Assembly: GCA_964580215.1 (NCBI GenBank)
Contig: CAZOJT010000013.1
Coordinates: 1,268 to 65,267, forward strand
Length of the DNA: 64,000 nt
Source of the DNA: an uncultured Ignavibacteria bacterium
GTDB lineage: Bacteria > Zixibacteria > MSB-5A5 > SM1-73
Direction: 5' to 3'
Shown: piece by piece, positions 4,788-63,343 of the stretch
How the letters are laid out: each line of letters begins with the position of its first letter
How positions within the stretch are numbered: position 1 is the stretch's first letter
Made by a program: the position numbers and the translations under genes
Notes under the pieces: model-generated
The model's database searches: none
What the model was told of the DNA's origin: nothing
What the model saw: only the letters and a program-made list of their open reading frames with translations

Positions 4788-6305
4788 ATGCTGAAGCGTT
4801 ACGTTGTAATCTTGGCAGTTTTAGTGATTGCCCTTTCGGTTCCCCAGCAGGTTCTGGCTGAGGGTCAGACGTGGGGCAATGATGTTTTGGTCCATCAAGC
4901 TAACCATATTTATGGTTTTGGCATGGATCAAGGGGACAAGGATACCTTACTCGTAGTTGTAACACACACGGGTACCACTAGAGACACACTTTCTATTTAT
5001 CGTTCCACGGACAACGGGCAAAATTGGAACCGTGAAAGAACCTTGATTTCTGGAGGCGATGATTTGCGTTTTGGCAAGGCAGATATTATCGCCGCAAAAG
5101 GTGACTCAAACTTTGTTTTCGTATTTTGGATATGGGACAATGAATTATGGTACTGCAAATACAATTACGGTGACCTTTCCCCACGTTTTTGCACTACGAT
5201 TGATAACGACAATGTAGTAGATTTTTCAGTTTGTCAGGACTTATGGAGTAATTACTGGCTGTACGTTGTTTACCAAACTGATCAGGATTCGGTAATATTT
5301 AAAACCTCCAGAGATTATGGTCAAACGTGGAAATTTAAAAAGAATCTTACTGAAGTTACCCCCATCACCAGCCAACCGAGCGTTGCTTATAGTCAAGGCA
5401 CCTATTTGGTGGTAGCTGGCAAAACCGACGATGATAAGATCTATACCATTAGAAATGATAATTCCGGCTACTCTGCTGATTGGAAAGATGGGCAATACAC
5501 ATCTGCACACACCGACTGCGATGATCCGGTTGTAGCCGCGTCACACGCCTCCCCTGACAGCGAAGCCGTGTTCTGGGTATTCTATGAACGTTACAGTACG
5601 ACCCCTCCTGCGCATTGGGTTTTGAATTTCCACTGGAGCACAGATGCTGGTGCAAGCTGGTTCATCACATCGCAACCTACTGATACCTCAAGTGGCAACC
5701 GGCTTTATCCTTCTTTGCACGTGTTGAAGGAGAACGAGGCGCAAAACATAACCTTAGCTTATCGCTACGAAGGGACGTCACCCAGGCAGATCCGTTACAT
5801 CTACAAGCCGAACGGGCAAGTTAATCCTTCGGTCTGGATGGCACCCTACAGTGGGATAAATGATCACAGTCCCCATCACACTCCTCCGCAGAGGGCATAT
5901 ACTCTGAGGGGGACGGACAATTCAGTCTTCTCTGCCGTGCTTTACGTCCACGACATGCTGAATGACCTGTACTTTGACGCTTCCTCATTCACTGGAGTGG
6001 ATAACGAATGGGGCGAGCAAATCGTTCAGGAATTTTCTCTAAGGCAGAACTATCCCAATCCCTTCAATCCGTCCACAGAAATTGAATTCGAGATCCGTCG
6101 AAACGGCTGGGTGAATCTGGAAATCTACAACATTCTGGGACAAAAGGTGCGCCAATTGCTAACAGACCATCTTGAAAAGGGTCATCATAGAATCACCTGG
6201 GACGGAAAAGACGACAATGGTAAAGATGTGGCGAACGGGATATATTTCTATCGTATCCAGACCGGAGACTTTACTGCAACAAAGAAGATGATTCTGCTCA
6301 AGTGA
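4788..6305 (+). CDS. Secreted BNR/Asp-box repeat protein (sialidase/glycosidase-like fold) with a T9SS C-terminal sorting domain
   Basis: N-terminal signal peptide. Three SxDxGxTW Asp-boxes are present (STDNGQNW, SRDYGQTW, STDAGASW). The ~80 C-terminal residues match the Por/T9SS CTD (NYPNPFNPSTEIEFEI...GIYFYRIQ). Confidence 0.6.
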   Translation: MLKRYVVILAVLVIALSVPQQVLAEGQTWGNDVLVHQANHIYGFGMDQGDKDTLLVVVTHTGTTRDTLSIYRSTDNGQNWNRERTLISGGDDLRFGKADIIAAKGDSNFVFVFWIWDNELWYCKYNYGDLSPRFCTTIDNDNVVDFSVCQDLWSNYWLYVVYQTDQDSVIFKTSRDYGQTWKFKKNLTEVTPITSQPSVAYSQGTYLVVAGKTDDDKIYTIRNDNSGYSADWKDGQYTSAHTDCDDPVVAASHASPDSEAVFWVFYERYSTTPPAHWVLNFHWSTDAGASWFITSQPTDTSSGNRLYPSLHVLKENEAQNITLAYRYEGTSPRQIRYIYKPNGQVNPSVWMAPYSGINDHSPHHTPPQRAYTLRGTDNSVFSAVLYVHDMLNDLYFDASSFTGVDNEWGEQIVQEFSLRQNYPNPFNPSTEIEFEIRRNGWVNLEIYNILGQKVRQLLTDHLEKGHHRITWDGKDDNGKDVANGIYFYRIQTGDFTATKKMILLK

Positions 6306-20366: not shown

Positions 20367-23300
20367 ATGCCTCTCACCGAACCAGAATTCAATGCCAAAG
20401 TCGTAGGGCTGATGAATCAAATCATCAGAGAGAAAGGCTTGGGTTTTGAAGAAGCTCGCATGGGCACCAGCCTGAAGATGACTGATGAAACCACCAAGTT
20501 CCCGGATGGGGTCATCTGGAAGAACAAGTCTACCAAAAGAGCATCTCTCCTTTTTGAGATAAAAAATCCAAGCTGGGATGCCTCCAATATTAAATTGGTC
20601 GACCAAGCTGGCACGAAAGCTTACGAATTAGGTACAAAATATTTTGCGACTTGGAACATGAGAGATTTTATCCTCTGGGAAACTTTCCGCGAAGGAGTCC
20701 CCTTATATGACAGACATAAAGAATGGTACAAAAACATAATCCTCGTAAAAGATATAAGTCAAGTAGACAGAAAAGAGAACTGGGAGAAAATCAAGAAATT
20801 TTTAGATAAGTTCTTAGATGCTCTAAATCAGGATATATTTAGACGAAGGAGGGTGTTTGTTGGTCTTCCAATAGATCAATTCTTTATAAGAAAGCTAGAC
20901 GCCAATGTAGATATCAACACGCGGGTTTTTTCCATAGCTTTAAAGCAGAAATGTACAGAAGATAAGAATTACTATCGACAGCTATGCAAATGGATTTGGG
21001 ATCAAGGTTGGCATCCTGATCTAAAGAAAAAAGCACAGGATACAGATCATTTTCTGTATGAGAGAATCGCTCGTGTTGCCGCGTATACCTTAGCTAACAA
21101 GATTCTATTCTATAATGTTCTTCGCACAGAACACCAAGAACTTGAGCCTATCCAGACTGAAAGGATTAAAGAGAGTCCAGACCTAAACCAGATTCTAAAA
21201 AAGCATTTCCAAGACGTCTTAAGAATCAATTATGATACCATTTACAAGATAGATATTTTCGATGACCTGAGAGTGCCAGATAATTGTTTAGAGCAAATGA
21301 TTAGGTTTCTGGATGATTTTGACAAATACGATTTCAAAGGGGTTAATTATGAGATATTGGGGCAGGTTTATGAGGATTTGATCCCCGGAACTGAAAAGCA
21401 CGAGATGGGTCAATATTTCACGCCTCCTTCGACCGTGGATCTGATTAACAGCTTCTGCATTCAGAAGCCCAATGATGTGATTTTAGATTTGGGCTGTGGC
21501 GCTGGAACTTTTCTGGTCAGAGCCCACGCTCGATTAAAGTATCTGAAGAAGAAAAAGACTCATAGAGAACTTCTGGAACAACTTTGGGGCGTTGACAAGG
21601 CTTCTTTCCCCGCTCATTTAGCCCAAATCAATTTGGTCCTGCCAGGTTTGTCCAAGACGGAAAATTTTCCCTACATAGAAAATAAGGATGCTTTTGACAT
21701 CAAACCCCAAGAGACCTATTTTGAGGTCCCCTATCACCGGGGAATAAAGCATGAATATAAGAAGATTTCAATGAAAACAGCAAAAGTGAAAATCCCGGAC
21801 ATGGATGCAGTGGTTGGCAATCCTCCATATATCCGACAGGAGAAACTCGCAGAGGAAGATAAAGAGCACATAAGAAAAGCAGTGGAAAAAGATTGGGGAA
21901 ACTTTAGACTTACCAGCCAAACCGGTCTTTCTATAAGCAGGCAAGCAGACATCTACGTTTATTTCTTCATTCACGCTGCCAGATTTCTAAAGGAAGGTGG
22001 TCGTTTAGGATTCGTGACCTCCAATTCCTGGCTGGATGTCAGATACGGAGCAGGATTGCAAAAATTCTTTTTGGACAACTTCAAGATCATCGCTATCATT
22101 GAGAGCAAAGTAGAGAGGTCTTTTGCCAAAGCGGATATCAATACTGCCATCACCATTATCGAACGTTGTTCTGACAAGAGAAAGAGAGATAACAACACCG
22201 TCAAGTTTGTGGTCTTGAAGGAGAAAATGGACACCCTCATCCCCAAAGACGGAGATAGGGATAGATTTTTGGTTTGTGAAAAATTGATCTCCAAAATTAC
22301 CCGTAGCAGAAAACTATATGAAGATTCTCAAATCAGAGTGCTTCCTAAAAAGCAAAAAGAACTGTATCGAGAAGGAATTGAAGATAATGTCTATGTTGGG
22401 TCAAAATGGGGCGGAAAATATCTGAGAGCGCCGGATATTTTCTTCAAGATTCTGGAGAAAGGGGAAGACTTATTTGTCCCCTTGAAGGATGTAGCCGAGG
22501 TTAGAAGAGGCTTTACTACAGGAGCAAATGATTTCTTCTACTTGACGGAAGAGCAGATCAAAGCCCACATGATAGAGGATAAGTTTTTAGAACCAGTGAT
22601 GAGAACACCAAGAGAAAATGACTGCATTTTAATTGACCCACGTAATTTAAAATTCAAGGTTTTGCTGGTGCACAAGGACAAAAGAGAATTAAAAGGCACA
22701 AATGTATTGAAGTATATCTACTGGGGTGAACTAAAAGAATATGATCAAAGATCAACTTGTCGTTCAAGAGCGAGATGGTATAGTTTACCGGCACCTCGAA
22801 ATGCAAAGATTGCTTGGAGTATGATTCACGCCCACCGACATGTTGTCTTTTATAACAAGTTCGGTTGTCAACTAGATCACAATTTTTTTGAAATTTTACC
22901 AAAAAAGAAACGGTATACGACAATTTTTTTGGCCCAATTAGTGTCTACAATTTCTATGCTAACAAAAGAACTTTTTGGGCGCCAATATGGCGGTGGTAGC
23001 GGCCCAATTAAAACAGAGGGAATCGACATAGAAAAACTACTTGTAATACGCCCCGAGAAAATTCAAACCAAGATGAAACAAAAAATTAGACAAGCCTTTG
23101 ATGTCCTTACTCATCGTCCGATTCAAGTGGTATTTGAAGAGGTTAAGCAAAAAGATCGGCAACAATTGGACAACATCTTTTTTGATATTTTAGGCTTGAC
23201 TAAATACGAAAGACAGCAGGTCTATGACGCGGTTTGTGAATTAGTCAGGAATAGATTAGAGAAGGCTAAAACATTTGGAAAAAAGAACACGAACAAAAAA

Positions 23301-23732
23301 GAGGAGTTTAATCCTTCCTCTTATGCAGACCACATCTTAGAGGAAGTTTTCTTGGCGCAAGAAAAAAAGGAATTCCCAAAAGATTTCACAGAACCATCTT
23401 GGGAGACTTTCGCTATTCAACTGCCCAAGATCGAACCAAAAGGTAAATTAACCATCGAGGAATTCTTCGGGAAAGCAAGCTTAAGAATAGACGGTGAGAC
23501 GATCGATTGCCAAACTACACCAAAAGCAAATTTTGTGGAGTTAGCAATAGAAAAAGGCGTTAGAGATCAAGTTGCTGTTCCTGCGGATGACAAGAATTGC
23601 ATTAAGGCAATCAGAGGTTATTTGAATTACCGCAAGATTATCCAGGCACAGATCGAAGACACCATGAAAATGTTTAATTTGACCAAAAAGCAAACCAAAG
23701 CTGTTCTTTTGGAAATGGAGAACAGATTCTAA
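20367..23732 (+). CDS. Single-chain Type IIG/IIL restriction-modification enzyme (MmeI/Eco57I-like): N-terminal PD-(D/E)xK nuclease fused to an N6-adenine DNA methyltransferase and a C-terminal specificity region
   Basis: The first ~110 aa carry a PD…EIK arrangement (FPDGVIW…LLFEIKNP). The central region has motif I DLGCGAGTFLV and motif IV VVGNPPYIRQ (NPPY, gamma-class amino-MTase). A long C-terminal region of ~550 aa fits a target-recognition domain. The gene has lower GC than its flanks. Confidence 0.6.
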   Translation: MPLTEPEFNAKVVGLMNQIIREKGLGFEEARMGTSLKMTDETTKFPDGVIWKNKSTKRASLLFEIKNPSWDASNIKLVDQAGTKAYELGTKYFATWNMRDFILWETFREGVPLYDRHKEWYKNIILVKDISQVDRKENWEKIKKFLDKFLDALNQDIFRRRRVFVGLPIDQFFIRKLDANVDINTRVFSIALKQKCTEDKNYYRQLCKWIWDQGWHPDLKKKAQDTDHFLYERIARVAAYTLANKILFYNVLRTEHQELEPIQTERIKESPDLNQILKKHFQDVLRINYDTIYKIDIFDDLRVPDNCLEQMIRFLDDFDKYDFKGVNYEILGQVYEDLIPGTEKHEMGQYFTPPSTVDLINSFCIQKPNDVILDLGCGAGTFLVRAHARLKYLKKKKTHRELLEQLWGVDKASFPAHLAQINLVLPGLSKTENFPYIENKDAFDIKPQETYFEVPYHRGIKHEYKKISMKTAKVKIPDMDAVVGNPPYIRQEKLAEEDKEHIRKAVEKDWGNFRLTSQTGLSISRQADIYVYFFIHAARFLKEGGRLGFVTSNSWLDVRYGAGLQKFFLDNFKIIAIIESKVERSFAKADINTAITIIERCSDKRKRDNNTVKFVVLKEKMDTLIPKDGDRDRFLVCEKLISKITRSRKLYEDSQIRVLPKKQKELYREGIEDNVYVGSKWGGKYLRAPDIFFKILEKGEDLFVPLKDVAEVRRGFTTGANDFFYLTEEQIKAHMIEDKFLEPVMRTPRENDCILIDPRNLKFKVLLVHKDKRELKGTNVLKYIYWGELKEYDQRSTCRSRARWYSLPAPRNAKIAWSMIHAHRHVVFYNKFGCQLDHNFFEILPKKKRYTTIFLAQLVSTISMLTKELFGRQYGGGSGPIKTEGIDIEKLLVIRPEKIQTKMKQKIRQAFDVLTHRPIQVVFEEVKQKDRQQLDNIFFDILGLTKYERQQVYDAVCELVRNRLEKAKTFGKKNTNKKEEFNPSSYADHILEEVFLAQEKKEFPKDFTEPSWETFAIQLPKIEPKGKLTIEEFFGKASLRIDGETIDCQTTPKANFVELAIEKGVRDQVAVPADDKNCIKAIRGYLNYRKIIQAQIEDTMKMFNLTKKQTKAVLLEMENRF

Positions 23733-27484: not shown

Positions 27485-29452
27485 ATGGGAAAAAATTCAA
27501 ACCAGACAAAATACTCCGAGCAAAGGAAGAAGAGACTATTTACGACTGAAAATGCGCTTTGTGCTTCCGTGTTCCTCTTCTTCTTTGCAGTTTACACCAT
27601 AACATTGTGTCCCACCGTTTTCTGGTGGGACTCAGGGGAGTTGATTGCCAACATCGCGGTCTTGGGAATACCCCATCGCCCCAGCTTTCCCATTTACGTG
27701 CTTTTAGGTAAACTTTTCTCCTTTCTCCCCTTCTGGAGTTTTGCCTTAAAGGTGAATTTTCTCTCCGGCCTCTTTGCTTCTTTTTCACTGGCAATCTTTT
27801 GTAAGATTTTTCTCAAGAGTGCTAACCTGTTTTTCCCGGAAATGGCTAAAAAGAGGGGATTGGTTCTGGCTTCAGGTTTCTTTTTTCTTTTAGTTTTTGG
27901 GTTTACCTATTCGTTCTGGATTCAGGCGGTAAGGGCAGAAGTTTATTCTTTGAATGTTCTTTTCTTTTCCCTGCTTTTGTTTTCAAGCATTTTATACCTT
28001 AAGGATGGAAAGCTGAAATATATCTATCTTTTTTTCTTCCTTTTAGGATTGGGTCTGGGAAATCATCATCTTAGTTTATTATCATCCACTCCCGCTTTGT
28101 TCTTCCTTCTCTTGTGTTCATCCGCTCACAATGAATCCGTCATTCGTCATTCGTCATTCGTCATAAATCTCAAAAGATCTCTTTTATGCACTTTACTTTT
28201 CTTATTCGGTTTAAGCATCTATCTTTATCTTCCCATCCGCTCCCTATCCCAACCAACCTTAGCTTGGGGTGAGGTCAAATCCATTTCCTCGTCTGCAAAT
28301 TCCATCTTTGCCCTCGACACCATTAAGAATCTGAATCTGGAGTTTTTGTCAGATATTACTACCACGATGTCACAGATACTTTTACTTATCTCTGATCAAC
28401 TCACTCTCTTATGTTTCACCATCAGCCTTCTGGGGCTTTTTCTACTTTTCAGGCATAACCGCAAGCTTTTGACTTTTCTACTATTGTTGATAGGAGGCAA
28501 CTGTGCGGTGGTGATATTTATGACCACGGAGTTTATATCCACCAATCCCGATCTACATGGCTATTTAATTTTCTCCATCTTCGCTCTGGCTTTCTCTTAT
28601 GGTATAGGTGTCTTCTTTATATTAAATAATATTCGTCATTCGTCATGGTTCGACTTTGCTCACCACAAGTCCGCCATCCGTCATCTTTTTTTGATCGTTT
28701 TTGGAGCGATTTCCCTCATTCCTATGTTTAAACACTATCCGGAGGCGAATCTATCCAACAATCGGATTGCCCATAATTACGGCTTGAGTGTTATCTCCGA
28801 TCTGGATTCTAACTCGGTCGTTTTCGCGGACAACGTCAATTTGAATTTCATCTTGAGGGAACTTCGCTATGCAGAAGGACTAAGAAAAGATGTAACCGTT
28901 CTTGATCGTGGTCTTTTGAGCTTTAACTGGTATGTGACACAAAAAAGAAATGAGCAAAAAGTCCTCTTCTCAGGTATTCCGGGGAGCTTAATTGGTGAGC
29001 CTCTGTTTGAAGCGCTTCTAAAAAGATGCCAAGATTCAGAGAAGCCCACATATATCGAATTCACTGAAAGGGATTCAAATCTGGTGAACCATCTCATTCC
29101 CAGAGGATATGTTTTTAAAATAAGCAAGACACGAATTGGTCAACTTTCGGAAAGGGTTCTACTATCTCAGAAAAGATGGGAACATGATGGTCCCTTCGAT
29201 CCACAGGATGAGGTGTTTCAAAGAGACTGGGATACTAAAAGGGTGTTTGCTCTTTCTTTTTATCGATTAGGGCTTTTCTATGAATGGAAGGGGATGACCT
29301 CCTTTGCTCTGGAAAAATTCGCACAGGTCAGAAAGATCGACCCGGGAAATAAGGAACTCATCCTGAAGATCGAGCATTTGGAGACGATAAAGAGATTATC
29401 GGAGAGTTCTGAGGCGGGTTCTTTTCCATCTCCAGGAAAACCTCTTAGATGA
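27485..29452 (+). CDS. DUF2723/PMT-like (TMEM260-type) GT-C glycosyltransferase with a C-terminal TPR domain, copy 1
   Basis: The first loop carries WWDSGE (the DxE/DSGE acceptor motif of PMT/ArnT-like GT-C enzymes). About 11 TM helices follow. A large C-terminal soluble region has TPR-like repeats. There is a paralog at 31111-33126. Confidence 0.55.
   Translation: MGKNSNQTKYSEQRKKRLFTTENALCASVFLFFFAVYTITLCPTVFWWDSGELIANIAVLGIPHRPSFPIYVLLGKLFSFLPFWSFALKVNFLSGLFASFSLAIFCKIFLKSANLFFPEMAKKRGLVLASGFFFLLVFGFTYSFWIQAVRAEVYSLNVLFFSLLLFSSILYLKDGKLKYIYLFFFLLGLGLGNHHLSLLSSTPALFFLLLCSSAHNESVIRHSSFVINLKRSLLCTLLFLFGLSIYLYLPIRSLSQPTLAWGEVKSISSSANSIFALDTIKNLNLEFLSDITTTMSQILLLISDQLTLLCFTISLLGLFLLFRHNRKLLTFLLLLIGGNCAVVIFMTTEFISTNPDLHGYLIFSIFALAFSYGIGVFFILNNIRHSSWFDFAHHKSAIRHLFLIVFGAISLIPMFKHYPEANLSNNRIAHNYGLSVISDLDSNSVVFADNVNLNFILRELRYAEGLRKDVTVLDRGLLSFNWYVTQKRNEQKVLFSGIPGSLIGEPLFEALLKRCQDSEKPTYIEFTERDSNLVNHLIPRGYVFKISKTRIGQLSERVLLSQKRWEHDGPFDPQDEVFQRDWDTKRVFALSFYRLGLFYEWKGMTSFALEKFAQVRKIDPGNKELILKIEHLETIKRLSESSEAGSFPSPGKPLR
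28137..28164 (+). repeat. Heptanucleotide tandem repeat (cgtcatt)x4 inside the DUF2723 CDS
   Basis: The sequence ccgtcattcgtcattcgtcattcgtcat was read directly. A second 2-copy tract (attcgtcattcgtcat) lies at 28631-28646. Confidence 0.8.
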
Positions 29453-31110: not shown

Positions 31111-33126
31111 ATGAGGTTAGAGATTAAATGTTTCTGCCCTTTTTCCGACCATAATAATATGCAATGGGTCGATGGATCCACCACAAGAAAGAATACAATC
31201 ATCGGTGGGGCAATTTTCATTGTAACATTCGGTATGTACATTTTCACCATGTGCCCCACCATTTACTGGGAGGACTCCGCTGCTTTTTGTGCTGTTCATT
31301 CCCTGTTGGGGATTCCTCATTCTCCAGGTTTTCCCATATATGTCCTTTGGGGGAGGCTTCTTACCATGGTCTCCATTTCCAATTCTGCCTTCTGCTCCAA
31401 CCTTATGTCCGCCTTCTGGGGCAGTCTAACACTGGCACTCCTATATCTTCTTATCATCGAAATCTTTGATCAGATGAAGTCCAGCCGTTCGCTTTTAAGA
31501 TTGTCCACCATAACCAGCATATTATTCTTGGCATTCTCCACCTCCTTTTGGCTTCAAGCCATAAGAGCAGAGGTTTATACTTTGAATATTTTTTCCACCG
31601 TTCTTCTGATTTTTCTTATGATAAAATGGTGGCACTTCAAGGAATCTCATCTCGGCTTCAGAATCTTGCTCTTGTTTTCTTTTATTCTGGGGCTATCTTT
31701 GACCAACCATCCTCTTCTGATCATCACCCTACTACCTGCCTTTCTGTTATTTTTCTTTTCCGCCCAGACGGGCGGTCGTCTAATCGCTGATTCTGAGTTT
31801 CTTTTAAACCCAAAGAAACTGTTTTTGTTGGCCATATTTCTTATGCTGGGAATATCCGTTTATCTTTATCTACCCATCCGATCAAATCTTTCACCTCTTA
31901 TCAACTGGGGAAAACCGGACTCCTGGTCAAACCTTCTCTGTTATCTGTTCCGAACCTCCCAGACAAGTGTTACTGCTTCTGATCCAGGTTTTCCCTATTT
32001 GAATCGCTTGTGGTTCAATCTCTCCTTCCCGGTGGCTCAATTCGGTCTGCCTTTTTTCTGGTTAGGTGTGGTGGGAGCAATTTCTTTGTTTAAATCCTGC
32101 CGGGGGATTTTCTTTCTCACTTTTTTTATCTTCACCCTGAACATGTTAACCGCCAGTTGGGCTGTCGATTTCTCTTTGAGAAACTATGATCTTTTGGGTT
32201 ATCTTTTGCCCTCGCTTTCCGTGTTTACCATCTGGTTCGCTTTAGGATTAAAGACAGTTTTAAGTTGGATGTTTAAAGAAGTTAGAATCCTTCACACAAA
32301 TCCCATTGGCCAAACCAATAAAGTTGTGAGCTATATGGTTGTATATGCCCTTTTTGGACTATTCCTCTTGCTGCCGTCCTTTCAGGTGTGGAGAAACCTC
32401 GACCAGTGCAATAAGAAATCCCAAGCTTGGGCTTACAGTTATGCGCACCAGATTCTAAGCTCTGTTAAAAAAGACGCCATGATCCTGGTGGGCGATGATA
32501 ACACTTTAACCTCCCTGTGGTATTTGAATCTGTCTTGTGGCATAAGACCGGATGTCAAGATATTAAGTATATCTGCCCTAACGCAGAAAAGTTATAGAGA
32601 ACAGATAAGCCAGCAATATAGAGACATAAAACTTCCAAAGCTTGGACAAAAAGATTTTGGGGAAATCGCATATGAGGTTTCCCAAATAAATGCTGACAAT
32701 TTCCCGGTCTATTCCACTCACTTCTCCAAACATCCCCTTTTTGTCCAGTATCTACGTCCGGCTGGATATTTGTTCGAGTTTTGTCCAAAAGGGGTAATTT
32801 TGACCGATAAAGATATTAAAGAACAGAAAGATTTCCTTAAAAGAAATTTGAAGCACGAAAACTTTGATATCTTAACCCGGGAGCATTTCGGGAATCTTAT
32901 TTTTAACCTGGGTGCATTTTATGACCTGAAAGGTGGTTCATCTTCATCCATAGAATATTTTCTGTGGGCTCTGGATGTGGACTCAACCAATCCAAGGATC
33001 TACTTTCAGTTGGGGAAAGCGTTTCTGAAAAACGGGGACAAAACTAAAGCTCTAGATTTCTTTCAGGCAGGTTTGGAGTTGGATCCATATAATCTGGAGG
33101 CAAGAAGGCTTTTAGAAAAAACTTAA
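31111..33126 (+). CDS. DUF2723/PMT-like GT-C glycosyltransferase with a C-terminal TPR domain, copy 2
   Basis: Paralog of 27485-29452 with the same architecture (IYWEDSAAF motif in the first loop, polytopic membrane region, C-terminal TPR). The start is probably the internal ATG at ~31159. Confidence 0.55.
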   Translation: MRLEIKCFCPFSDHNNMQWVDGSTTRKNTIIGGAIFIVTFGMYIFTMCPTIYWEDSAAFCAVHSLLGIPHSPGFPIYVLWGRLLTMVSISNSAFCSNLMSAFWGSLTLALLYLLIIEIFDQMKSSRSLLRLSTITSILFLAFSTSFWLQAIRAEVYTLNIFSTVLLIFLMIKWWHFKESHLGFRILLLFSFILGLSLTNHPLLIITLLPAFLLFFFSAQTGGRLIADSEFLLNPKKLFLLAIFLMLGISVYLYLPIRSNLSPLINWGKPDSWSNLLCYLFRTSQTSVTASDPGFPYLNRLWFNLSFPVAQFGLPFFWLGVVGAISLFKSCRGIFFLTFFIFTLNMLTASWAVDFSLRNYDLLGYLLPSLSVFTIWFALGLKTVLSWMFKEVRILHTNPIGQTNKVVSYMVVYALFGLFLLLPSFQVWRNLDQCNKKSQAWAYSYAHQILSSVKKDAMILVGDDNTLTSLWYLNLSCGIRPDVKILSISALTQKSYREQISQQYRDIKLPKLGQKDFGEIAYEVSQINADNFPVYSTHFSKHPLFVQYLRPAGYLFEFCPKGVILTDKDIKEQKDFLKRNLKHENFDILTREHFGNLIFNLGAFYDLKGGSSSSIEYFLWALDVDSTNPRIYFQLGKAFLKNGDKTKALDFFQAGLELDPYNLEARRLLEKT

Positions 33127-56500: not shown

Positions 56501-57730
56501 ATGGTGAGTCTGAACTGGATTTTTTCTGTCAGGGCGCATGAGATGAAAAGCTCCATCATCCGTGAGATATTGAAAATAACTCAAAGACCTGATGTGATCT
56601 CCTTTGCCGGGGGGTTGCCTGCACCCGAGCTTTTCCCTATCGAACCGTTGAAAAAAGCATGTGAGAAGGTTCTGGATAATTATGGATCTGAAGCTTTACA
56701 GTACAGTCTTACCAGGGGAGTGCTGCCCTTACGCCAGATTCTGGCGGAGAGGCTCTCCCAAAAAGGGACGGCTCTCACTGAGGAAAACATTTTCATCACC
56801 GGAGGCTCACAACAGGCATTGGATCTGGCGGGGAGGGTTTTTCTGGATAAGGGAAGTGTGGTGATCTGTGAAAGCCCCACCTATCTGGGAGCAATCCAGG
56901 CGTTTAATGCTTACAATCCCCAATATATTACCGTGGATATGGATAAGGAGGGGATGCTTGTAGACCAACTGGAGGAGAATATAAAGAAATACAAGCCACG
57001 ATTTATCTACGTGGTCTCCAATTTCCAAAATCCATCCGGCGTAACCTTAAACTATGAAAGAAGAAAACATCTGGTCAAGCTGGCTGAAGAATACTATATC
57101 CCCATCATAGATGATAATCCCTATGGGGATTTGAGATATGTAGGAGAGGACGTTCCTTCACTCAAAAGTCTCGGTGGTGATCTAGTAATCGAGTTGGGGA
57201 CCTGTTCTAAGATTGTGTCACCAGGCCTGAGAATTGGATGGGTGGTTGCCTCCACCGAAGTGCTGGCCATGTTCGAACGGATGAAACAGGGAGCTGACCT
57301 GCACACTAACACCTTCGCTCAGTATGTGTTCTACGAATATATAAAGGATGGAAACTTGGACCGCCATATCCAGGAGATCAAAGACGCTTACAGTGAAAGA
57401 AGGGATGTGATGATCAAAGCACTGAAGGAGCATTTCCCTGAAAATGTGAAATGGATTGAGCCAGGGGGAGGACTCTTCCTTTGGGTGGAATTGCCCCAGG
57501 AGGTCTCCGCCACCAAACTGCTGGACGAGGCAGTTAAGCAGAAGGTGGCTTATGTTCCCGGCAAGCCTTTTTATCCTTATGAAGATAAAGATAACACTTT
57601 GCGACTGAACTTCTCCAATGCCAGCCCGGAGATGATCCAGGAAGGGATAAAGAGATTGGGCAAGGTTTTTCGGGAGAACGTCAAAACTCTCACTCTGAAG
57701 AAGGAAAAGACCAAACAAAAAGCAGGTTAA
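56501..57730 (+). CDS. PLP-dependent class I aminotransferase (AspC/LysN-like)
   Basis: The N-terminus …SSIIREILKITQRPDVISFAGGLPAPELFP and a PLP lysine in the TCSKIVSPGLRIGW region are present. Confidence 0.75.
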   Translation: MVSLNWIFSVRAHEMKSSIIREILKITQRPDVISFAGGLPAPELFPIEPLKKACEKVLDNYGSEALQYSLTRGVLPLRQILAERLSQKGTALTEENIFITGGSQQALDLAGRVFLDKGSVVICESPTYLGAIQAFNAYNPQYITVDMDKEGMLVDQLEENIKKYKPRFIYVVSNFQNPSGVTLNYERRKHLVKLAEEYYIPIIDDNPYGDLRYVGEDVPSLKSLGGDLVIELGTCSKIVSPGLRIGWVVASTEVLAMFERMKQGADLHTNTFAQYVFYEYIKDGNLDRHIQEIKDAYSERRDVMIKALKEHFPENVKWIEPGGGLFLWVELPQEVSATKLLDEAVKQKVAYVPGKPFYPYEDKDNTLRLNFSNASPEMIQEGIKRLGKVFRENVKTLTLKKEKTKQKAG

Positions 57731-58123: not shown

Positions 58124-58163
58124 GCAACTCCAGAACCTAACTTAAGTTAGGTTCTGGAGTTGC
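58124..58163. other. Perfect 18-bp-stem hairpin (gcaactccagaacctaac-ttaa-gttaggttctggagttgc)
   Basis: Read directly from the sequence. It is not followed by a T-tract. Confidence 0.6.
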
Positions 58164-58720
58164 AATATGATGTTTCGCACCGGTGGAAGCGACCGATGGT
58201 GGGGATACCAGGGTTTTATCCCGTTTTTGGGGGCGCACCTGTCCGAATTCTGGATCCTGCGGATGAGTTGGCGGGCGTCTCGACTCCAACAAAAACAAAT
58301 TAAACCCTTGAACTTTTGAACCCTAAGAATGACTTCTTGAGAAGTGCGGGATTTGAATCTGCTGTTGCGAACTCCTTGATTTTTTACTTGGCAAAGAAGG
58401 TAAATGAATTATTTTACTTTTTGGAAGAGGAAAGATTCTTTTTTCATCTGAGTTGGAAAAATGGCAGAGCACTTCTTTTCAATCCCAAGAAGGATAGTCT
58501 AACAATTTTTGAATTTGTGATCACCCGGAGTTCGGGAGGAAAGAGATTTTCGCTTCGAGAGTATCCAGTGTAGTTCAGTCTTTTGGCTTTAAAAAAAGAG
58601 TATCTTAAGAGATGTTAAGTAAAACAAACTTTACCCGATCTAAAAAAGGAGGTGATCTTTTAAAGAATTCATTAGATTTAAAACCTATGTTCTTAAACGT
58701 TCAGATTAGGAGGAAAGAAG

Positions 58721-61700
58721 ATGTCAAAGAAAACAGTAATAGTTCTGGTTCTGTCATTTGCTTTGATTCTACTGATGGTATCCTCTATAGCTATAACGGC
58801 ATATACAACGGATAAGCAATGTGACTGGCAGCCGGGCGATCCTCACAAGATGCACTACCCGCAGTTGCCGGATGAGGATGGCTGGGACGTGAATGCGACC
58901 CAACCTTTGGTCTTAGCAGACGACTGGCAATGTTCGGATTCAGGCTGGGTCAAGGACATCCATTTCTGGGGTTCGTGGAAGAATGGCCTCGAGGGAACGA
59001 TTGTTGGCTTCTGGCTCAGTATCCACTCCAATATCCCTGAAGATCCGCCTTACATTCCCTACAGCAGGCCAGGCGAGACGCTGTGGGAGTTGTACGTTGA
59101 GGATTTCGACTTTACTCCGATCGATCCACCTACCATGGAAGGGTGGTATGATCCTTCCACCGGCGAGGTCATCCCGAACGATCATCAGGCCTACTTCCAG
59201 TACAACATCTGTCTCCACGAACCAGACTGGTTCTGCCAGTACCAGGACACCATCTACTGGTTGAATATCTCTGCAGTGGTTGAGGGTCCTGTCGGAACCC
59301 AGTGGGGCTGGAAGAACTCCGAGGATCACTTTCTGGATGACGCGGTCTGGGCTTTTTGGGGCGAGCTGAACTGGATCGACATTTGGGAACCGTCAACGCC
59401 ACTGTCCAACTTGTTCTGGGTGGCGGTCGACCCGGGTGGGATGCTCGATCCCGGGATGAGTGGTGGAACCAGCTACTTCGATGATGGTACCTCAATCAAT
59501 GGCTGGTACTACTACGAGGACACCGGATGGTGGAATATCTGGTTCTACGATCACCCATTTGATTCCTTGCGCATGAAGGAGGCACACATCGAGTTTGATC
59601 TGTTTGAATACATGACAGGTGAGCCTTCCTGGTTCACCTTTGCTGTCAACTGGTCAACCGACGTGTGGTCCATCGAACAACCCCCTGGCGACAGCATGCC
59701 GCCTCTGCCGGGAGTCTCTCCGGAGGAGCTCTACATTGGTCGCGAGATTCTCTACGATGGTCCGGTTGATCCCGGTCATTATGTCTTTGACTGGGAGTGG
59801 CCTGACTATAACCCAGAGTGGGTCTCCATCGACGTCATGGGTTACAACTTCGTGATCCCCGAAGGAATGGGGTGGATCGAACACGACTGCCGAGGTTCGC
59901 TCGACTTGGCGTTTGTGATCACCGGAGGACCAGAATGTGAGCCAAGCATCGATGTGGAGAAAAAAGTGTGGGATGAGACGCAAGGAGGCTGGGTTGACTC
60001 TACAGACATAGACGTATGCACAGATGCCCAATTTCTCATCACCATCCATAACGATGGAACCTGCTGTGACTTGACCAACATCTATGTTTACGACTTCATG
60101 GACTCGAGCTTGGAATTCCTGGATGCGGTCCCGCCTCCAGATACGGTAAGGTTGGTTCCGGGAGGCACAGGGCTGATCTGGTTAGACCCTGGACCATTAC
60201 CACCTTGCAACACGATTGACATCACGGTCACCGCGCATGTGGTTGGACCAGCTTGCCACCTCGATTCAAACTATGTATGGGCACAGGGCGACTGTGAAGA
60301 ACAGGCTGTGGGTGTATACGATGAAGACGTCGCATACGTGCATGCCACCGAGCCTCCATGGCCCAACCACAAGATGCACTACCCGCAACTGCCAGATCCA
60401 AATGGCTGGGACGTTGTGGCGACCATGGGGCATGATCTCCATCCGGGGATAGTGGTAGCAGATGACTTCATGTGTTCAAAATCACTCCCCATCACAGATA
60501 TTCACTTCTGGGGTTCATGGCTGTACGACGTAGAGGCACCTATTTTTGGCTTCTTCCTATCTATCCATGACAACGTCATTGGACCTCCGAGCCATCCAGG
60601 CGAGGAGCTGTGGTCAGCCTACATCACAGACTACGAAATGGTCCCGGAAGGTGAGGGTCCGCAAGGATGGTATGATCCGTTTGAGGGATGGTATGAGCAA
60701 TCCAACCACATCATGTATTACCGATACGACATAGACAGCATCCCGGAGCCATTCTACCAGGATAGTGGGACCATTTACTGGCTGAACATCATAGCCGACA
60801 TTGGTCCACCAGGGTATCAGGGATTTCCTGAGCCGCCGTTATGGGGTTGGAAGACCTCATTGGATCATTGGATGGATGATGCGGTGTGGTCCGTGTTTAT
60901 GCCGCCTTATGCGTGGACTCCGCTGTACGACCCGATAACCGGAGAGACGCTTGACATGGCGTTTGTGATCACCGGGGAGGCTCCTTGCGACCCACCAAAT
61001 ATCAACTGCCCGAGTGATGAGACCCAGAACCAGAACGGCGTTTATACCACCATCACCCAGTGGACCGCAGACGATGGAAATCCGGGTGATCCCAATGTTT
61101 GGTTAACCAGTGTTACGGTTCGGCCGCCCCTGCCACCTGGAATCTCAGTTGCCGTCGTGAATGTCGATCCACCCGGTCTTCCCGCAAAGACAGCAACCGG
61201 GACGGTTACCTATACCGTGGCCAATCACTGCCAAGCTGGTGGTCCCATAATCCTGATGGCTAAAAACAACTGTCCACCACCAAACACGGCTACATGCTCA
61301 TTCGACGTGATTTTGACCAACGACCCGCCTGCTATCACCCAGCCCGATTCCCTCGAAGGCGTTGTGAACGATGTTGTGCAGTATGACATCACCGGCAACG
61401 ATCCGGACGGAGACGTTATTGAGGACCAAGCCTCCATACGCATTGAGCCCGACTGTGGCAACTACTCAATAACCAGAACTGCAGGATCTGGAACTCCTAC
61501 AGGCACCTGGCAGATCACTTGGGACACTTTTGGTTGCACAGCTTGCCAGACCTACCTGGTTATCCACGATCTGACTGATGGTTGCGATACCTCCTGGTGC
61601 ACCACCAAGGTGCATCTCTCTGAGCCGGTGGGATGGTGCTGGAAGGATTCATTCCCGGATTATGCTCCCAACGGCATGCCAGACATCGACCAGAGGCAGG

Positions 61701-63343
61701 ATAGCTGGATAAAGGCGGAGACTGAGCAGTGGACCTTCTGTGGACCTTGTGCTGTTGCCAACTGCTTCAAGTGGTTCGACTCCAAGTATAACGTTCCACC
61801 TGGCGGTCCGGGAGACGGAAGTGACATGTTCCCGCTGGTAAGACAGTATATTGACGTGATCGGCGGAATGATCTGTCCATGGGATGACCACGATCCTTTC
61901 AATGTAGATCACCCTGGTACTCCCTGGCAGTTTGGAGCTACTCCACCGCCTCCTCCTACTCTTCCTCAACCTTTCGTTCCCGGTCCACAGCCTCCAGGAC
62001 CCATGCCTCCTTGGGGCGAATTGGTGGAGAGATTGGCCTGGTACTTTAACACGGACGGGGTTCAAACCGAATACTGTGAGTTCTCAGGAACCGATGTCAT
62101 GGAGATGCAAGCGGGAATTCAGGATTGGCTTGAAAGCGAAAGGTTCCCGGGCGCAGAGCAGATGTTTATAAGAGGAGATGTCAACGAGGATGGGGTTGTC
62201 AACTTGGCTGATGTGGCCGCATGTGCAGCTGGAGGACCCTTCTCCTGCGATGATGCCGCCGATGTCAATGATGACGGGATACTGAATGTGGCTGACTGTG
62301 TCTATCTCACCAACTATCTCACAACAGGAGGACCACCTCCACCTCCGCCATACCCGGATTGCGGTGTGGATCCAACCGCGGATGGACTCGATTGCGCCGA
62401 TTATCCTCCTTGTCCATTCAGCAACACCCTGGCAGATACTCTATGCGAAGTGACCAGAAAAATGCCCACCTTTGCCTATGTGGAATCCCTGGTGGAGAAA
62501 TCTGAGGATGTGATCTTGCTATTGGGCTTCTGGTATGAGGATTCACCGGGAAGTGGAGAATGGTGGAGAGTTGGTGGACACTATGTCACCGTGGCAGGCG
62601 TGAACTCTCAGGAAAGGGCGATAGCCTTCTCCGACCCGTTCATCGATGCCTTCGAGATGGGTATGGCTCCGGGTAGAGTGGGAGATGGATGGATTATTCC
62701 TCACGAGCATGGACCTCATGAGCCCACAGTGCATAACGATGAAGGAAATGTCTGTCATGATATGTATTGGGTCTCAGAAGATCCTATCAGCCCTGGAGGA
62801 CTGTGGTGGTTGCCTGAGTATGTAGTCATGATGGATCCTTACTACTGGACTTGGAACTTCTTTAACCAGAACGTTCCGGATGAATTCATCCCTGTGACTG
62901 CACCGTGGAATGAAATGTCGCCCATCTTCACCGAGGTGGAGTATTGCGTGCACATCAGCCCGTGGGATTATCGAGGAGACGTTCAGCCTATTGGTGGCAA
63001 TGGAGTGGTGGACTTAGGTGACTTGCTCTTCATTATCAATTACCTGTACAAAGGAGGACCAGCACCTGTTCCACTCTCAGAGGGAGACGTCAACTGCGAC
63101 GGAGTAATAGACCTTGGAGATGTCCTCTTCCTGATCAGCTACCTGTATAAGGGTGGCCCGTTTCCAAATGCTGTGATCCATAGTTGCCTTCCAACCGGAA
63201 GCAGTAAGATCAAAAGCCCCGCCAACAAGCGGGGCTTTTGTCTTTCTTCAACCCTATCTTTACCATCGATCAAGTTTGTCAAAAAGGTCATAATTTGTAT
63301 TCGTAAACGGTCTCGGATTCATCCTGAAGGAAAAAGAACTTGA
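58721..63343 (+). CDS. Large secreted protein with an internally duplicated unknown domain, a proline-rich linker and two C-terminal dockerin-like modules
   Basis: Has a signal peptide. A repeated ~300-aa unit starts with HKMHYPQLPD…GWDV…ADD..C…DIHFWGSW. A PPPPPTLPQPFVPGPQPPGPMPP linker follows. There are four dockerin-type Ca-binding repeats (GDVNEDGVVNLADV, DVNDDGILNVADCVYLTNYL, GNGVVDLGDLLFIINYLYKGGP, GDVNCDGVIDLGDVLFLISYLYKGGP). GC content is clearly higher than the surrounding genes. Confidence 0.6.
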   Translation: MSKKTVIVLVLSFALILLMVSSIAITAYTTDKQCDWQPGDPHKMHYPQLPDEDGWDVNATQPLVLADDWQCSDSGWVKDIHFWGSWKNGLEGTIVGFWLSIHSNIPEDPPYIPYSRPGETLWELYVEDFDFTPIDPPTMEGWYDPSTGEVIPNDHQAYFQYNICLHEPDWFCQYQDTIYWLNISAVVEGPVGTQWGWKNSEDHFLDDAVWAFWGELNWIDIWEPSTPLSNLFWVAVDPGGMLDPGMSGGTSYFDDGTSINGWYYYEDTGWWNIWFYDHPFDSLRMKEAHIEFDLFEYMTGEPSWFTFAVNWSTDVWSIEQPPGDSMPPLPGVSPEELYIGREILYDGPVDPGHYVFDWEWPDYNPEWVSIDVMGYNFVIPEGMGWIEHDCRGSLDLAFVITGGPECEPSIDVEKKVWDETQGGWVDSTDIDVCTDAQFLITIHNDGTCCDLTNIYVYDFMDSSLEFLDAVPPPDTVRLVPGGTGLIWLDPGPLPPCNTIDITVTAHVVGPACHLDSNYVWAQGDCEEQAVGVYDEDVAYVHATEPPWPNHKMHYPQLPDPNGWDVVATMGHDLHPGIVVADDFMCSKSLPITDIHFWGSWLYDVEAPIFGFFLSIHDNVIGPPSHPGEELWSAYITDYEMVPEGEGPQGWYDPFEGWYEQSNHIMYYRYDIDSIPEPFYQDSGTIYWLNIIADIGPPGYQGFPEPPLWGWKTSLDHWMDDAVWSVFMPPYAWTPLYDPITGETLDMAFVITGEAPCDPPNINCPSDETQNQNGVYTTITQWTADDGNPGDPNVWLTSVTVRPPLPPGISVAVVNVDPPGLPAKTATGTVTYTVANHCQAGGPIILMAKNNCPPPNTATCSFDVILTNDPPAITQPDSLEGVVNDVVQYDITGNDPDGDVIEDQASIRIEPDCGNYSITRTAGSGTPTGTWQITWDTFGCTACQTYLVIHDLTDGCDTSWCTTKVHLSEPVGWCWKDSFPDYAPNGMPDIDQRQDSWIKAETEQWTFCGPCAVANCFKWFDSKYNVPPGGPGDGSDMFPLVRQYIDVIGGMICPWDDHDPFNVDHPGTPWQFGATPPPPPTLPQPFVPGPQPPGPMPPWGELVERLAWYFNTDGVQTEYCEFSGTDVMEMQAGIQDWLESERFPGAEQMFIRGDVNEDGVVNLADVAACAAGGPFSCDDAADVNDDGILNVADCVYLTNYLTTGGPPPPPPYPDCGVDPTADGLDCADYPPCPFSNTLADTLCEVTRKMPTFAYVESLVEKSEDVILLLGFWYEDSPGSGEWWRVGGHYVTVAGVNSQERAIAFSDPFIDAFEMGMAPGRVGDGWIIPHEHGPHEPTVHNDEGNVCHDMYWVSEDPISPGGLWWLPEYVVMMDPYYWTWNFFNQNVPDEFIPVTAPWNEMSPIFTEVEYCVHISPWDYRGDVQPIGGNGVVDLGDLLFIINYLYKGGPAPVPLSEGDVNCDGVIDLGDVLFLISYLYKGGPFPNAVIHSCLPTGSSKIKSPANKRGFCLSSTLSLPSIKFVKKVIICIRKRSRIHPEGKRT
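63213..63246 (+). terminator. Rho-independent terminator (gccccgc-caacaa-gcggggc + ttttgtctttc)
   Basis: Read directly. It lies inside the last ~40 codons of the annotated ORF, just after the final dockerin repeat. Confidence 0.6.

Follow-up and report, generated by a model that had tools for sequence, protein, structure and literature searches.

The 64,000-nucleotide stretch of contig CAZOJT010000013.1 that was analysed here (assembly GCA_964580215.1 of an uncultured Ignavibacteria bacterium, which GTDB places in the Zixibacteria), referred to below as the window, carries near its end a gene with an open reading frame (ORF) of 1540 codons for a large protein of modular construction. The protein is likely a secreted or surface-located product of a Zixibacteria type, in which DUF7901 domains would function in binding, two dockerins in attachment and a papain-fold domain as a predicted cysteine protease. 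The arrangement of the modules can be observed directly, the activities are predicted from it, and the reading as a whole is given a probability of about 0.6. From the N-terminus, the order is a signal or anchor sequence, a DUF7901 domain with a nested β-sandwich, an immunoglobulin (Ig)-like spacer, a short DUF7901 domain, further Ig-like spacers, a C39-like domain with a Cys-His-Asp set and a dockerin in one of its loops, and a C-terminal dockerin that ends in a conserved CCDP motif (Table 1). The family is already catalogued in Pfam, and the protein is an interesting member of a large uncharacterised family rather than a new kind of system; of modest interest are its domain nesting, a papain-fold family that has lacked annotation and the presence of a dockerin inside a catalytic-type domain.

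The DUF7901 domain (PF25470) is matched by the whole protein in two stretches with 292.2 bits (E = 3e-87), above the Pfam gathering threshold of 24 bits. The two copies are 46% identical over 200 amino acids (E = 5e-42), a similarity far beyond chance, and share the motifs HKMHYPQLPDEDGWDV and HKMHYPQLPDPNGWDV, DIHFWGSW in both, and WGWKNSEDHFLDDAVW and WGWKTSLDHWMDDAVW; these are the Trp- and Asp-rich blocks that had been quoted as occurring twice in an earlier reading of the DNA (the original prediction). That reading had left the repeat without a functional family and had named a known carbohydrate-binding module (CBM) or hydrolase family as the outcome that would speak against it; when the comparison was run, the module turned out to be DUF7901, a catalogued domain of unknown function. 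The proposed module of about 300 residues present twice holds insofar as the repeat is real, but the shared unit is about 205 residues long, and copy 1 is split by an insert of 165 residues. A recent internal duplication is also not supported, since each copy shares 70-89% identity with its counterpart at the same position in other proteins and only 46% with its partner; the two copies are old paralogous subtypes.

The split in copy 1 is evident from an excision in silico. When residues 36-410 are taken alone, copy 1 scores 156.8 bits and covers positions 1-193 of the profile hidden Markov model (HMM), and after removal of residues 228-392 and joining of the flanks the score rises to 170 bits over positions 1-205. 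The restored full-length match indicates that copy 1 holds a domain nested before its last strand. The insert domain has no Pfam match of its own, yet it is found in 105 of the 120 homologues compared, and the 375-residue long form, DUF7901 with the insert, is the commoner state of the family (115 full-length instances in the same 120 proteins). The insert also occurs without DUF7901, in seven copies, in a protein of 3532 residues that has 17 SprB repeats and a type IX secretion system (T9SS) sorting tail (P0231). An AlphaFold2 model of residues 36-410, built from an alignment of 32 sequences, is all-β with a mean predicted local distance difference test score (pLDDT) of 92.9 and a predicted template modelling (TM) score of 0.81. 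Foldseek comparison of this two-domain model with the PDB and BFVD gave only generic tandem jelly rolls with TM-scores of at most 0.27, among them phage tail and fibre proteins, PorU, picorna-like and birnavirus capsids and the TNF-like 4-1BBL. Given that these are low-scoring jelly-roll matches, homology to phage fibre, PorU, capsid or TNF-like folds was not read into them, and the model points to a β-sandwich or jelly-roll class for DUF7901 and its insert with no close solved relative. The HKMH motif was considered as a site for copper or another metal, and DUF7901 as an enzyme, but both ideas were left as speculation.

The C39-like domain (residues 969-1420), which the original prediction had not noticed, probably is a divergent papain-fold domain and a predicted cysteine peptidase or amidase; membership of Peptidase_C39_2 (PF13529) proper is not established. 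The candidate catalytic residues are Gln991, Cys1007 in the motif FCGPxAxAN, His1287 in GGHYVTVAG and Asp1305 in SDP, which are retained in 48, 46, 50 and 50 of 50 aligned relatives, respectively. In the AlphaFold2 model, where the pLDDT of the core exceeds 90, Cys1007 opens the helix at model positions 43-58, His1287 lies in the strand 317-331 and Asp1305 directly follows the strand 336-340. A Cys at the N-terminus of a helix, a His in a strand and an Asp after the next strand fit the papain topology at the level of sequence order and secondary structure. Two relatives that are 36-39% identical to the domain, P0152 and P0185, exceed the Peptidase_C39_2 gathering score of 24 bits with 29.1 and 29.7 bits, respectively, and seven of the 50 relatives match this family at E < 0.01; weaker, sub-threshold matches of the relatives are to other clan CA families, namely C70, BtrH_N and Guanylate_cyc_2. 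The top of the Foldseek list is dominated by clan CA peptidases, as weak matches (E >= 0.019), with staphopain, Treponema denticola C0362, the C39-like protein 3erv, AvrRpt2 and Alr0975.

Homologues of the domain are present in about 34 of the 120 relatives, and stand-alone versions of 350-600 residues occur in Zixibacteria, Planctomycetota, Anaerolineales and several archaeal metagenome-assembled genomes (MAGs). The protein as a whole is rich in Pro and Cys (10.5% Pro and 39 Cys, together with 9.8% Asp, 8.9% Gly and 4.8% Trp), in line with the Pro-rich linker and Cys-rich region noted earlier, but the main Pro-rich stretch, at residues ~1087-1113, is a conserved loop within the catalytic-type domain and not the linker it had been taken for. 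The domain also has nine further invariant residues, including the Asp and His of DDHD (1055-1058), HND (1338-1340) and SHD (1345-1347). The corresponding motifs, DDHDxxN (residues 1055-1061, window 61883-61903) and HNDxxxxSHD (residues 1338-1347, window 62732-62761), may form a metal site. Position 1345 is Cys in this protein alone and Ser in the others.

Two dockerin modules with four repeats had been claimed in the original prediction, and the protein matches Pfam dockerin type I (PF00404) in three stretches with 51.2 bits against a gathering cutoff of 22.9; matches to dockerins in the PDB are found for both modules. Three Ca2+-binding loops, at residues 1153, 1181 and 1456, are canonical (DVNEDGVVNLAD, DVNDDGILNVAD and DVNCDGVIDLGD), and the fourth, at residues ~1421-1436, is degenerate. 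What had escaped the earlier reading is that the internal dockerin is nested, as it takes the place of about three residues in a loop of the papain-fold domain. Most homologues have only those three or so residues at this loop and no dockerin in the domain. In the present protein and in its closest non-identical relative, P0002, the dockerin follows the sequence WLESE.F, whereas in eight other homologues (P0014, P0006, P0007, P0017, P0019, P0022, P0029 and P0033) it is found between LLLGFWY and GGHYVTVAG, in a loop just before the catalytic His. The use of two different loops suggests that dockerin nesting in the papain-fold domain arose at least twice, by independent insertions.

In the terminal dockerin, the second Ca2+ loop includes a Cys (DVNCDG), and in the intact allele described below the module is followed by CCDP (window 63086-63183). 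The pairing of a Cys in the loop with CCDP is present in a subset of the relatives, and suggests a disulfide clasp. More generally, the C-termini of homologues carry CCDP, CRVCDP or CCNPPW, with a Cys pair at the C-terminus in 55 of 120, and this conserved motif may act in sorting or form a disulfide clasp. In the 79 loci related to that of the gene (L001-L079), 35 ORFs with a dockerin and no DUF7901 are located no more than 10 kb from DUF7901 genes, from which it appears that dockerin-tailed proteins loosely cluster in these genomes.

A search with the whole protein returned 656 relatives, of which those with a named source come from MAGs of Zixibacteria or the FCB group and are annotated as hypothetical or as dockerin type I repeat-containing. 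The identical sequence of 1540 residues is already in NCBI, near-identical ones are in JGI, and P0002 shares 72% identity with it across 97% of the length. With a profile of the long form, 3,513 clusters at 50% identity were retrieved (1,402 of them at E <= 1e-30), with up to nine matched stretches per protein. GTDB species representatives contain at least 550 loci, mostly in Zixiibacteriota MAGs; for some of the loci the MAG carries the label Ignavibacteria, Planctomycetota/Phycisphaerae or Thermoplasmatales, the labels being given as recorded. Among 27 long DUF7901 members, the partner domains are GEVED in 18, Laminin_G_3 in four, dockerin in two, Peptidase_S8 (subtilase) and C39_2 in one each, and a FlgD_ig tail. 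No glycoside hydrolase or CBM is found by Pfam in the present protein or in those 27. The occurrence of DUF7901 in many clusters and multiple copies, in the company of GEVED and SprB and with no glycoside hydrolase, supports a non-catalytic role at the surface; this pattern, we infer, is that of a repeat unit in proteins that are secreted or exposed at the surface, rather than of an enzyme or part of an operon-bound system.

Taken together, the protein would be exported by the Sec pathway, after which DUF7901 and its insert would bind or act as spacers without catalysis, much as such modules do in giant adhesins. The papain-fold domain would hydrolyse peptide or amide bonds of an extracellular substrate, and the two Ca2+-dependent dockerins would attach the protein to a partner, located on the cell surface or within a multi-protein assembly. 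The N-terminus consists of MSKK and 22 hydrophobic residues that end in AITA, followed by YT, and appears on inspection of the translation to be an export signal or anchor, in agreement with the secreted protein proposed before. Several observations weigh against this account. The signal peptide was called by eye alone. Residues 969-1420 have no Pfam match even at E <= 10 and stay below the PF13529 threshold, a profile of the peptidase-type family found no match among PDB sequences, and the Foldseek matches of the domain are all weak (E >= 0.019, TM-score <= 0.32). Of the 49 relatives without a gap at the Cys position, three have another residue there, and the extra invariant Asp and His suggest chemistry or metal binding beyond that of a plain cysteine protease. 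The gene neighbourhood is not conserved, the commonest neighbour family being present in 13 of 79 loci, and no substrate, DUF7901 ligand or cohesin partner was identified.

An alternative is a purely structural or adhesive surface protein, an adhesin or part of a matrix akin to an S-layer, in which the papain-fold domain would be a binding module, or a transglutaminase or amidase that cross-links or trims surface polymers. In its favour, the papain fold is also known to house transglutaminases and amidases, the additional invariant Asp/His motifs of the domain lack an explanation, DUF7901 and its insert are repeated in giant proteins with SprB, GEVED, Laminin_G_3 and T9SS tails, and about 86 of the 120 close homologues combine DUF7901 with a dockerin and have no peptidase-type domain. 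On the other hand, the Gln/Cys/His/Asp set is kept in 46-50 of 50 relatives and the only Pfam families that the relatives match are clan CA peptidase families, and this alternative is considered unlikely. A cellulosome-like complex for polysaccharide degradation, the model implied by the original prediction, with DUF7901 as a new CBM and the dockerins plugged into a cohesin scaffoldin, is less probable still. The dockerins are true type I-like modules and DUF7901 is a β-sandwich rich in Trp and Asp, like many CBMs, but no CBM or glycoside hydrolase family is matched in the protein or the 27 long family members, solved CBMs of defined families are not prominent among the best structural matches, and the sole catalytic-type module is peptidase-like. 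Cohesins were not found among the 10 largest ORFs of the window, nor by a jackhmmer search with three CipA-type clostridial cohesins of the six-frame translated window and the 79 related loci (1.1 Mb), a search of low sensitivity that is not genome-wide; literature searches for DUF7901, and for Zixibacteria with dockerin or with cohesin, returned no papers in the library used. A more daring proposal, and one that must be considered very improbable, is a cohesin-free dockerin assembly for the degradation of protein rather than polysaccharide, a "proteasosome", in which DUF7901 and its insert would be the receptors for the Cys-clasped dockerins of the phylum, DUF7901-dockerin proteins would polymerise on the cell surface and the loop-nested dockerin would couple docking to activation of the protease.

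The base composition had also led to the idea of horizontal transfer, considered here in the form of a recently acquired foreign island. The GC content of the gene is indeed above the background, being at 0.529 the highest in the window against 0.39-0.51 for 36 other ORFs, but most of the excess is due to amino acid composition. The GC content at third codon positions (GC3), 0.585, lies within the range of the neighbours (up to 0.601), and it is the first and second positions (GC1 and GC2) that are the highest, in keeping with the abundance of Pro, Gly, Asp and Trp. Furthermore, the closest relatives are from the same phylum, with hundreds of paralogues and orthologues in its MAGs, and the gene is flanked in both available assemblies by the same aminotransferase (56501..57730, upstream) and tyrosyl-tRNA synthetase (tyrS, downstream) genes, with no mobile-element genes adjacent. 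Recent horizontal transfer is thus not supported, and the foreign island is considered very improbable.

With the Zixiibacteriota DUF7901 proteins in NCBI the protein shares the domain (292 bits) and the overall architecture; the present copy differs from the intact allele of its own population by the frameshift, through which the conserved CCDP end is lost. The papain-fold domain has the Q...CGPxAxAN...GHYVxVxG...DP pattern of Peptidase_C39_2 and clan CA, as in the Bacillus anthracis protein 3ERV and the staphopains. However, it measures about 360 residues without the dockerin, in contrast to the 143 positions of the Pfam model, has a conserved Pro-rich loop, a C-terminal subdomain, the DDHD and HND..SHD motifs and the loop dockerin, and in the present protein falls below detection. 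A parallel in layout is T-Mac (TDE0362) of T. denticola, in which Ig-like binding domains are followed by a C-terminal cysteine protease (PMC11833123; PDB 9mdm, 9mdk). The logic of non-catalytic β-sandwich binding modules followed by a C-terminal papain-fold protease, here predicted, would be common to both, whereas T-Mac has neither dockerins nor DUF7901 and is a virulence factor directed at the host. In structure, T-Mac ranks 3-4 in the Foldseek list with a probability of 0.54-0.75, a weak match (E = 0.04, TM-score 0.16) with no sequence similarity. The tandem 22-residue Ca2+-binding repeats and the C-terminal placement of a dockerin are shared with cellulosomal enzymes such as Cel48S and Xyn10B of Clostridium thermocellum, but here no carbohydrate-active module or cohesin is detected, one dockerin is nested in a catalytic-type domain, and the terminal one has the Cys in its second Ca2+ loop and the CCDP motif. 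Finally, DUF7901 and the insert are used as repeat units also in the T9SS giant adhesins of the FCB group (SprB, GEVED, Laminin_G), unlike which the present protein ends in dockerins and not in a Por_Secre_tail.

The ORF of 1540 codons proposed originally does exist, but its last 53 codons (63184-63343) are read-through and not coding, which the earlier reading had missed. The same locus from another metagenome (L080), 99.89% identical over 6281 nucleotides, has GGG where the window has GG. Homologues end in GPxP[RK]CCDP, and KCCDP with a TAG right after it is encoded in a different frame of the window. In the 90% identity cluster of the protein there are two members of 1540 residues and two that end in YLYKGGPVSKCCDP, of which the full-length one has 1487; these intact proteins, P0228 (1487 residues) and P0229, end in GGPVSKCCDP. 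From the KCCDP frame, the GGG in L080 and the ends of the cluster members, it follows that the true product has 1487 residues. With one nucleotide deleted, the TAG drops out of the frame and the ORF gains 53 codons that run across its own strong intrinsic terminator, which falls inside the spurious tail; the last nine residues, including CCDP, are replaced with 62 read-through residues. The GC content of the last 40 codons is 0.40, compared with 0.49-0.57 across the rest of the gene. The GG is due to an indel in the assembly or to a variant in the population. The frameshifted form has been deposited in NCBI and once in JGI, and the intact allele is found in two other JGI assemblies; in either case, the allele or assembly at hand has a slight defect at the extreme C-terminus. 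For genome annotation, the gene is an example of a frameshift-extended ORF, the 1540-residue protein of which is carried by public databases.

Table 1 Features of the DUF7901 gene and its product (window positions; residues are numbered in the 1540-residue translation)
Feature	Residues	Position	Strand	Basis
Shine-Dalgarno sequence AGGAGG		58708..58713	+	Read directly, 7-8 nt before the ATG at 58721
ORF of 1540 codons, ATG start	1-1540	58721..63343	+	Read from sequence
N-terminal signal peptide or signal anchor (candidate)	1-27	58721..58801	+	By eye from the translation
DUF7901 copy 1, core	44-225	58850..59395	+	Pfam PF25470 (HMM 1-193 of 205), AlphaFold2
Nested β-sandwich insert domain, no Pfam family	228-392	59402..59896	+	Excision test, homologues
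Closing strand of DUF7901 copy 1, SLDLAFVITGG	393-403	59897..59929	+	Matches LDMAFVIT at the end of copy 2 (HMM up to 205)
Ig-like spacer	405-545	59933..60355	+	Pfam DUF11, E = 0.028, below cutoff
DUF7901 copy 2, short form	552-751	60374..60973	+	Pfam, 154.9 bits, E = 3.6e-45 (HMM 1-205)
Cys-rich Ig-like spacer region	753-968	60977..61624	+	Weak Big_9 match, E = 0.0014
Papain-fold C39-like peptidase-type domain (probable)	969-1420	61625..62980	+	Conservation, AlphaFold2, Pfam scores of relatives
Internal dockerin with Pro/Cys-rich tail	1143-1233	62147..62419	+	PDB 2y3n_B, E = 6.6e-6
C-terminal dockerin	1421-1480	62981..63160	+	Best Dockerin_1 stretch at residues 1426-1475; PDB 3ul4_B, E = 1.2e-4
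Frameshift site, GG in the window and GGG in the intact allele		63155..63156	+	Comparison with L080
TAG stop of the intact reading frame		63181..63183	+	Alternative frame reads ...KCCDP, then stop
Intrinsic terminator, 12-bp stem (8 G-C pairs) at 63211-63240 and T-rich tail		63211..63250	+	Terminator scan

As to the Ig-like regions in the table, in the relatives the segment homologous to residues 405-545 carries PF01345 and segments homologous to residues 753-968 recur one to four times. An NCBIfam scan gave no meaningful match. The protein exposes three gaps in current annotation: the domain inserted in DUF7901, the divergent family related to C39 and the dockerin subtype that ends in CCDP. 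The Zixibacteria are uncultured and widespread in sediments, and the DUF7901 proteins are among their largest secreted proteins; the subset with the papain-fold domain and the pairing of dockerin and peptidase-type domain offer experimental handles on extracellular protein processing.

The other genes in the window are those of an ordinary chromosome, with IleRS, SecA, PurF, a sigma-54 activator, a CCA-adding enzyme and an aldehyde dehydrogenase. At 4788-6305 lies the ORF of a BNR-repeat protein that ends in a Por_Secre_tail / FlgD_ig domain, which indicates that the organism has T9SS cargo beside the dockerin-tailed proteins. The 1121-residue protein encoded at 20367-23732, probably a fused type IIG/IIL restriction-modification enzyme, has N6_Mtase, Eco57I and MmeI-type methyltransferase domains. 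Two paralogous TMEM260-like (protein O-mannosyltransferase-like) membrane proteins are encoded near each other at 27485-29452 and 31111-33126, one of them with C-terminal TPR repeats. Rfam gave no match in the window at its gathering thresholds, and the spacer upstream of the DUF7901 gene yielded only spurious microRNA-type hairpin matches. Within this spacer of about 1 kb, at 58128-58159, lies a perfect palindrome of 32 nucleotides with the halves CTCCAGAACCTAACTT and AAGTTAGGTTCTGGAG.

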